Notes under the pieces: generated by a model
What the model was told of the DNA's origin: nothing
Databases searched by the model: none
The model's input: the letters and a program-made list of their open reading frames with translations, nothing else
NCBI RefSeq assembly: GCF_003334255.1
Contig: NZ_QOWU01000051.1
Length of the DNA stretch: 41,368 bases
Direction: 5' to 3' (one strand)
Source: Escherichia coli
GTDB taxonomy: Bacteria; Pseudomonadota; Gammaproteobacteria; Enterobacterales; Enterobacteriaceae
Shown: one piece after another, positions 1 through 686 of the stretch
Position numbering within the stretch: position 1 is the stretch's first letter
How the letters are laid out: each line of letters starts with the position of its first letter
Program-made: the position numbers and the translations under genes

Positions 1-77
1 AATCGGTGGAGCTGCATGACAAAGTCATCGGGCATTATCTGAACATAAAACACTATCAATAAGTTGGAGTCATTACC
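1..77 (+). mobile_element. insB: IS1 right-end fragment: last 19 codons of insB plus the terminal inverted repeat (IRR); the element body lies left of the window
   Basis: Frame 3 of 3..62 translates to [19 protein letters not shown]-stop, which I recall as the InsB C-terminus. Bases 55..77 (atcaataagttggagtcattacc) are the reverse complement of the IS1 IRR GGTAATGACTCCAACTTATTGAT. The same 77 bp recur inverted at 41292..41368. Confidence 0.85.
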
Positions 78-282
78 TAAAATGACTGGTTTAGTAAAAT
101 GGTTTAACGCAGATAAAGGTTTTGGCTTTATCACTCCTGATGATGGCAGCAAAGACGTTTTCGTCCATTTCACCGCCATCCAGAGCAATGAATTCCGCAC
201 GCTGAACGAAAATCAGAAAGTTGAATTTTCTATTGAGCAGGGGCAACGTGGCCCCGCGGCAGCGAACGTTGTTACGCTCTAA
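78..282 (+). pseudogene. cspG: Cold-shock protein CspG, 5'-truncated at about codon 3 by the IS1 junction; an 82..282 ORF from the internal Met5 remains
   Basis: The ORF product ...[66 protein letters not shown] matches CspG from residue 5. The expected N-terminus MSNK and the native leader are replaced by IS1 sequence ending at base 77. Confidence 0.6.
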
Positions 283-481
283 GGTTGCCATTATTACTCA
301 ACATCTCCATTTCCGCTGTCCATGTTGTCATGGTTCACAGTACCGCACATCGGCATTCGATGTGACGGAGCGAAACCCTTTGGGCGCTAAGTGTATTTTT
401 TGTAAATCGACGATGATCACCTTTGATAACGTCGCGCTGCAAATACGCACTGACCATGCGCCGCTGGATTTCACAAAATAA
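221..481 (+). CDS. ymcF: Small zinc-ribbon protein (CPCC...CIFC), YmcF-like; start uncertain, the true product is probably shorter than the 86-aa ORF
   Basis: ORF between cspG and ymcE with two CxxC pairs. The ATG at 221 lies inside cspG; no canonical start is obvious after the cspG stop. Confidence 0.3.
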
Positions 482-686
482 TATCAGGCTCCCTCGTGGA
501 GCCTTTTTTATATCTGCCTTATTTTTCTTCAACGCTGTATGTATAGTAAGCGATAACCTGTTGATTATTGAATCTTTCGGGGAGATGGCTTATAACATTT
601 CTTACCTGACCAGGGTACCGGGAACCAACACCTTACTGGCGTGTTGCTGTCTTTTAAGACCAGAAGAGGTTAACAGTGAATATTGA
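456..686 (+). CDS. ymcE: Small membrane protein YmcE (Sfa), 76 aa
   Basis: Internal Met of the 423..686 ORF gives [34 protein letters not shown]...; hydrophobic, at the K-12 position between cspG and gnsA. Confidence 0.5.
   Translation: MRRWISQNNIRLPRGAFFISALFFFNAVCIVSDNLLIIESFGEMAYNISYLTRVPGTNTLLACCCLLRPEEVNSEY

Follow-up and report, generated by a model that had tools for sequence, protein, structure and literature searches.

An IS1 right end adjoining a 5'-truncated cspG gene in an Escherichia coli isolate

The IS1 end, the cspG remnant and the flanking genes

The DNA analysed here, referred to as the window, is a contig of 41,368 nucleotides from Escherichia coli (NZ_QOWU01000051.1, assembly GCF_003334255.1), and it begins inside a copy of IS1. 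Positions 1–77 on the plus strand are the right end of the element, comprising the last codons of insB, the insB stop codon TAA (60–62) and the right inverted repeat (IRR, approximately 55–77). These bases (AATCGGTGGAGC...CACTATCAATAAGTTGGAGTCATTACC) match the final 77 nt of the MG1655 copy of IS1D (768 bp; L001, 1310–2077) at 77/77 positions, in agreement with the original prediction, which had placed the end of the element at base 77. They are also the end of IS1A in strain SCU-176, and the matching copies carry the annotation "IS1 family transposase". The features of an IS1 right end, a terminal inverted repeat and the subterminal sequence ...ATCAATAAGTTGGAGTCATTACC, follow the 3' end of insB, and the repeat terminates with ...GTCATTACC at base 77. 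The insB transposase gene is read towards cspG, the two genes being co-oriented.

The IS1/cspG junction lies between bases 77 and 78, inside codon 3 of cspG (AA|T), as an alignment to the intact locus of MG1655 shows. An uninterrupted run of 922 bases shared with MG1655 opens at base 78, which corresponds to nt 9 of the cspG coding sequence. Across the breakpoint the native sequence in MG1655 is ...GAAGGAAGTAAAATATGTCTAA|TAAAATGACTGG, and that of the window is ...GGAGTCATTACC|TAAAATGACTGG (with a longer left flank, ...TTGGAGTCATTACC). The T of codon 3 and the whole of codon 4 (AAA) are retained, while 8 nt of the coding sequence and the leader are missing. The junction rests on deterministic sequence identity and not on a statistical pattern. 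An InsB-CspG fusion protein was considered and rejected, since the insB stop codon at 60–62 is intact and the frame differs from that of cspG.

The truncated cspG gene (78–282, plus strand) corresponds to nt 9–213 of the 213-nt coding sequence including the stop codon, as seen from its identity to MG1655 and from the list of open reading frames. The ATG at 82 is Met5, and opens a reading frame of 66 amino acids (82–282, plus strand) which is identical to residues 5–70 of the 70-residue CspG protein WP_000066490.1. The annotation of that protein bears out the N-terminus MSNKMTG given in the original prediction. The earlier description of the remnant as CspG from Met5 was thus effectively correct, with the refinement that the break is inside codon 3. 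Intact strains do not have the window sequence upstream of codon 5, and the proposed junction survives the alignment to an intact cspG.

The 66-residue frame contains a complete cold-shock domain, with both RNP1 (KGFGFI) and RNP2 (VFVHF) present. It gives matches in the PDB to CspA and CspB with E-values down to 1e-30, and aligns over its full length with solved cold-shock proteins of 66 residues (7ot5_B, residues 1–66; 1g6p_A, from residue 1). On the basis of these similarities, the remnant would probably fold and bind RNA if it were translated.

What has been lost at the junction is the native start. ATGTCTAA and everything upstream of it are replaced by IS1, and the native ribosome-binding site GAAGGAAG and the N-terminus MSNK are absent. 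The 5' untranslated region of cspG is 155 nt long and contains a cold box and a downstream box (PMC6719143). The Rfam family RF01766 (cspA thermoregulator) matches the intact MG1655 cspG over model positions 1–428 with 159 bits, and the match begins 156 nt before the ATG, in agreement with the published length. Against the window the score falls to 106 bits, the hit carries a flag for 5' truncation, and the alignment is confident only from base ~78, at about model position 169. The 5' positions of the model align only at the intact locus, and the leader of ~155 nt is therefore missing at the junction. Thus both the comparison with MG1655 and RF01766 agree with the earlier claim that the start codon and the cold-shock leader were lost, and the ribosome-binding site is missing with them. 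The stronger claim, that all upstream control is gone, holds at the junction, but the control region may sit 768 bp away, or farther off after a rearrangement. Because the window begins inside IS1, a control region that is gone and one displaced by 768 bp look the same here.

Downstream of the junction the gene order is as expected, namely cspG-ymcF-ymcE-gnsA-yccM-torS. The first of these neighbours, ymcF (293–481, plus strand), starts 10 nt past the cspG stop codon; its ATT start and the product name "cold shock small protein YmcF" are taken from the RefSeq annotation of an identical locus and from its translation. A scan found no terminator-like site between cspG and ymcF, and located a hairpin followed by a run of T resembling an intrinsic terminator at 486–504 (plus strand), which closes the cspG-ymcF unit. 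The RefSeq product name and the close spacing suggest that ymcF is probably co-transcribed with cspG and has lost the same control region. No literature on cold induction of ymcF was found among the papers searched. Positions 439–519 give a sub-threshold Rfam match to the Salmonella sRNA STnc220 (34 bits, against a gathering score of 60), a stretch that covers the last part of ymcF together with the terminator hairpin. The same match occurs in MG1655.

The other end of the contig is also an IS1 right end (41292–41368, minus strand). It is the exact reverse complement of positions 1–77, and this identity stops at exactly 77 nt. From this pattern the 77-nt ends are probably the k-mer overlap (k=77) of a short-read assembler at a repeat boundary. 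The remainder of the 768-bp element, which would include insA, insB' and the A6C frameshift site, was collapsed by the assembler and lies outside the window, as does the left junction. The 41-kb segment from cspG to pgaA is thus flanked by inverted IS1 copies, both with their right ends pointing inwards. pgaA occupies 38476–40899 on the minus strand, and the second IS1 end is 392 nt upstream of its start codon. Many complete genomes have IS1 at other positions in the spacer between pgaA and dgcT, one example being SX12 with IS1 ~250 nt from the pgaA ATG. On this evidence, the spacer looks like an IS1 hotspot which could affect the regulation of PGA biofilm.

Transcription and translation of the remnant

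The original prediction left two routes by which the remnant might be expressed, namely read-through from IS1 or a hybrid promoter. A scan for sigma-70-like promoters on the plus strand found none in 1–814, and in the full IS1 the only promoter-like site on this strand is the left-end promoter; on the same scan, the idea that the final part of IS1 holds a complete outward promoter was rejected. IS1 is said to generate hybrid (fusion) promoters, as reportedly described by Prentki and colleagues in 1986. The inverted repeat of IS1 contains an outward -35 box, and a hybrid promoter requires a -10 box at the right distance from it; when IS1 lies upstream of a gene, the transcript may go up, go down or be unchanged depending on this spacing (PMC8764528).

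The window does contain the outward -35-like hexamer, TTGGAG at 64–69 (plus strand), which also includes the sole Shine-Dalgarno-like sequence before ATG82 (GGAG, 66–69). The sequence at 86–93 is CTGGTTTA, so that the hexamers at a spacing of 16–18 nt are CTGGTT, TGGTTT and GGTTTA. None of these has A at position 2 together with T at position 6, and there is accordingly no -10 box at 16–18 nt. In addition, the putative start site of such a promoter, at ~99, lies past ATG82, beyond which no other in-frame ATG occurs in CspG. Expression from a hybrid promoter is excluded by both the spacing and the position of the start site. The junction shares with a known IS1 hybrid promoter, that of afaA in ST131 (PMC8764528), an outward -35-like hexamer beside a co-oriented gene, but differs in having no -10 box at 16–18 nt and in placing the start site inside the open reading frame.

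Since the remnant itself lacks a promoter and the hybrid promoter is excluded, read-through across IS1 is the only route left. The earlier alternatives of an inactive gene or one expressed by read-through or a hybrid promoter are thereby narrowed: the gene is likely inactive, with read-through as its sole route to expression. The scan found no intrinsic terminator between insB and ATG82. InsA represses the IS1 promoter, which is described as "extremely weak", and transcription from upstream is known to enter IS1 (PMC12428005).

The sequence GGAG (66–69) is 12 nt upstream of ATG82, a long distance for Shine-Dalgarno spacing, and the spacer is A-rich. The earlier view that ATG82 has a poor Shine-Dalgarno context is therefore roughly right, but it is incomplete, since the AUG is also predicted to be sequestered in a hairpin. 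In this hairpin (68–87, plus strand), AGTCATT at 68–74 pairs with AATGACT at 81–87 across a loop of ACCTAA, burying the AUG. The 7-bp stem is perfect and is created by the junction, the end of IS1 pairing with cspG codons 4/5–6. The predicted folding energy is -6.6 kcal/mol at 37 °C and falls to -11.0 kcal/mol at 15 °C, and the unpaired probability of the AUG (82–84) is calculated as ~0.03–0.04 at 37 °C and <0.1 at 15 °C. In the cold the hairpin behaves in the opposite way to the native thermosensor, whose opening at low temperature permits translation. On these models, sequestration of the AUG, rather than the missing Shine-Dalgarno sequence alone, is predicted to be mainly responsible for the translational handicap.

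The target also matches the end of IS1 over 7 nt (AATGACT). This is suggestive of end-homology targeting, but it was noticed post hoc, and matches of equal length occur at ~3.8% of window positions.

The list of open reading frames includes a second possible start, a TTG at 64 within the IS1 inverted repeat, which opens an in-frame hybrid reading frame of 72 amino acids (64–282, plus strand). No Shine-Dalgarno-like sequence is present upstream of it, an exact-protein look-up gave no gene on record for the 72-residue product, and this start is probably not used.

It could be argued that the remnant is nevertheless usefully expressed, read-through from IS1 yielding a 66-residue Met5 form, or the 72-residue TTG64 hybrid, that works as an RNA chaperone. 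In its favour, cspG is read in the same direction as IS1, no intrinsic terminator lies between insB and ATG82, upstream transcripts are known to enter IS1, the GGAG and its A-rich spacer are available, and 66 residues make up the full cold-shock domain. However, the AUG is predicted to be sequestered, the more so in the cold, and the thermosensing leader that provides cold-specific translation is not contiguous with the reading frame. Polarity is a further obstacle: since frameshifting is rare, insB goes mostly untranslated, a condition that promotes polarity, and polar effects are a classic property of IS1 insertions. Useful expression is therefore doubtful, and the level of expression of the remnant is probably low.

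Rarity of the junction and related alleles

The junction was absent from all records searched, with no hit in a megablast of positions 1–300 against 5,426 complete E. coli genomes and no exact match for a 32-mer spanning it in the GTDB representative genomes and JGI metagenomes. With a 160-nt probe, the native boundary between leader and start is contiguous in 5,409 of the 5,426 complete genomes, and is therefore intact in 99.7% of them. The nearest complete genome, G1/2, shows 4 mismatches to the window across 36.6 kb. Its cspH-cspG region is intact and free of IS1, and IS1 is likewise absent between gfcA and cspG and upstream of pgaA. As both IS1 junctions of the window are absent from this near-identical genome, they are recent and strain-specific. 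G1/2 does have an IS1 in pgaB (L021, 4283–5050), where 152 bp corresponding to 36704–36855 of the window are missing. By this comparison, IS1 is active in the lineage and can accompany deletions.

Related lesions in cspG were collected by exact look-up of the 66-residue remnant; the set is thereby enriched for such lesions and is uninformative on selection. The closest of them (L007; UGAG01000001.1, GCA_900448895.1) has an IS1 only 2 nt away from the position found here, in the opposite orientation and of a different isoform. It is flanked by a 9-bp duplication, AAATGACTG (nt 11–19), and the intact leader is present on the far side of IS1. The same few codons are hit as in the window and the same 66-residue Met5 frame is left, but it is the left IS1 end that abuts the remnant in L007 and the right end in the window, marking the two as independent events.

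Elements of the IS5 family have inserted at almost the same place. Two sequences have such elements at CTAA, in cspG codons 2–3 (L010, CM132769.1, ~1797–2996; and L019, strain CH4804, ISKpn26, ~1305–2500), and a third has at the same CTAA a MITE-like element of ~109 bp with IS5-type terminal repeats (L004, CP142568.1, 2884–2992). All three are independent insertions that cut cspG within 1–4 nt of the break in the window, but they belong to another IS family, have a 4-bp duplication of CTAA and place a different outward sequence beside the remnant.

The 66-residue form also arises in other ways. One sequence (L008) has a +1 frameshift in cspG, and three assemblies (L005, L009 and L011, at ~2989) have the cspG start changed from ATG to ATA (AAATATATCTAATAAA), together with an 899-residue TorS. 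Given the 66-residue UniProt entry Q0T645_SHIF8, the ATA start may be a trait of the Shigella flexneri lineage, and it could explain why the 66-residue form is common in databases. This form is on record as WP_000147279.1, labelled CspG by NCBI, as well as Q0T645_SHIF8, and is present on at least 1,000 contigs. The product is recorded in tens of thousands of assemblies, being given by other lesions and by the choice of start by gene callers. One further sequence (L013, ADUK01000019.1, 3001–3201) has an intact cspG start region and is annotated as the 66-residue Met5 form all the same, and part of the abundance of this form is therefore due to gene-caller start choice.

In other complete genomes, co-oriented IS1 copies also precede cspG by 18, 108, 212 or 433 nt, and in K-12 the distance is 915 nt. 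From these positions, the AT-rich cspH-cspG region is a general target of IS1. The copy at 18 nt from the cspG ATG, in SCU-176 (L002), is oriented as in the window, presents the same end to the gene and likewise separates it from the leader. However, SCU-176 keeps the Shine-Dalgarno sequence (GAAGGAAG) and the native ATG, so that full-length CspG is translatable from read-through, whereas the window has lost both. In strain 20A24 (L017, 1–1600), the IS1 upstream of cspH adjoins corA/ysgD, not gfcA, on its other side, an arrangement which points to a large IS1-associated rearrangement in that strain. The AT-rich first codons of cspG (TCTAATAAAATGACTGG) are thus a recurrent target of both IS1 and IS5-family elements.

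Origin of the junction and its consequences

On the basis of these observations, we hypothesise that the junction arose by a recent, simple, co-oriented insertion of IS1, leaving cspG knocked out or expressed at a trace level that is not inducible by cold. We give this explanation as a whole a probability of roughly 0.6; simple insertion as a model for the origin leads over deletion and inversion with about the same confidence. IS1 would have transposed into cspG codons 3–6 in the same orientation as the gene, with a predicted 9-bp target duplication TAAAATGAC (nt 9–17 of cspG), and the 5' part of cspG, ending ...ATGTCTAATAAAATGAC, would adjoin the left IS1 end. At least 768 bp of IS1 would then separate the body of cspG from its start codon, its ribosome-binding site, the cold-box and thermosensor leader of ~155 nt, and its promoter. 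Transcription of the remnant could come only through IS1, started either by the very weak IS1 promoter under InsA repression or, should it still lie upstream, by the cspG promoter. Initiation would have to occur at an AUG inside the hairpin and with a distant GGAG, and the outcome would be a knockout or a trace, non-cold-inducible level of CspG, and probably the same for YmcF. Simple insertion is supported by the precedent of L007, with its 9-bp duplication and its leader on the far side of IS1.

There are counterpoints to this explanation. Only 77 nt of IS1 are in the window, and an inward-facing pair of IRR also fits an inversion mediated by IS1, while IS1-associated deletion has occurred in the lineage, as seen from the 152 bp missing in pgaB of G1/2. 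The translational block might also be less complete than supposed, since the hairpin is modest at 37 °C and the A-rich spacer favours initiation. A cold-induced cspG promoter reading across IS1 could give more than trace expression.

The two counterpoints on origin lead to two rearrangements that have to be weighed against simple insertion. A single inversion mediated by IS1, by replicative intramolecular transposition or by recombination of inverted copies, could have made both contig ends. The 41-kb segment from cspG to pgaA would then be inverted, and the 5' part of cspG would lie ~42 kb away beside the left end of the other copy. Replicative inversion predicts what is seen, the same IS1 end facing inwards at both ends of the contig, and both IS1 copies are missing from the closest relative, G1/2; moreover, IS1 transposition is mainly replicative (PMC12428005), and rearrangements of this type have been reviewed (PMC9330008). 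Independent pairs of insertions would give an inverted pair in half of cases and this exact arrangement in a quarter. The gain in likelihood from orientation is however only about 2-fold, and in other strains IS1 has targeted the cspG start and the spacer between pgaA and dgcT independently, which makes two separate insertions unremarkable. We regard the inversion as unlikely. An adjacent deletion, in which a co-oriented IS1 upstream transposed into codon 3 and removed cspH, the promoter, the leader and the start, is quite unlikely too. The IS1 copies upstream of cspG in various complete genomes provide possible donors, lying between gfcA and cspH in K-12 and in the cspH-cspG spacer in other strains. 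Adjacent deletions by IS1 are known (Turlan and Chandler 1995, as cited in PMC9330008), and the loss in pgaB of G1/2 lies next to an IS1. However, G1/2 has no IS1 between gfcA and cspG, which would demand two successive events, and in L007, L010 and L019, where both sides are visible, the elements are simple insertions.

It is also conceivable that the adjacency of IS1 and cspG is a chimeric join made at a repeat by the assembler. Each end of the contig breaks off after precisely 77 nt of a multicopy repeat, a typical boundary in a de Bruijn graph. Against this, the break coincides with the terminal base of the IS1 inverted repeat, which is where true transposition would place it, such contig ends are normally read-supported k-mers that span the junction, and a near-identical junction is real in L007. 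An artefact is in our view scarcely credible. IS fragments at contig ends do mark assembly boundaries, and any claim that a promoter has been lost requires sight of the other junction.

The strain presumably tolerates the loss of cspG, since the cold-inducible CspA paralogues are redundant. Cold sensitivity requires deletion of the four genes cspA, cspB, cspG and cspE (Xia 2001, as cited in PMC4956666 and PMC6719143). Loss of cspG alone would be expected to have almost no effect, with a mild phenotype. A comparable case is the insertion of IS1 into cspC in laboratory evolution (PMC5460176), in which the same element hit a CspA-family gene of ~210 nt within its coding sequence, again in a strain-specific manner. 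That case concerns another paralogue and has a 9-bp duplication, whereas here the break in codon 3 leaves a complete domain reading frame and the second junction is outside the window.

If simple co-oriented insertion is correct, it has a further possible consequence, which we consider rather unlikely but worth stating: the strong, cold-inducible cspG promoter and its mRNA-stabilising leader would now drive the IS1 copy and produce a cold-induced transposase mRNA. The native ATG would then open a 12-codon reading frame, MSNKMTVMLPTY, ending in the IS1 inverted repeat. Were this true, transposase mRNA, and perhaps transposition, would go up after a downshift in temperature, and polar read-through would give a trickle of cold-induced 66-residue CspG and YmcF.

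The junction is thus a new allele of a well-known kind of event, insertional inactivation by IS1, and a routine strain-specific knockout in a redundant family. cspG, and probably ymcF, are likely null in this isolate, and an automated annotation of a 66-residue "CspG" here describes a remnant. The finding has little import beyond the annotation of the strain, its mild interest being that a stress-responsive promoter is possibly reading into a transposase gene.
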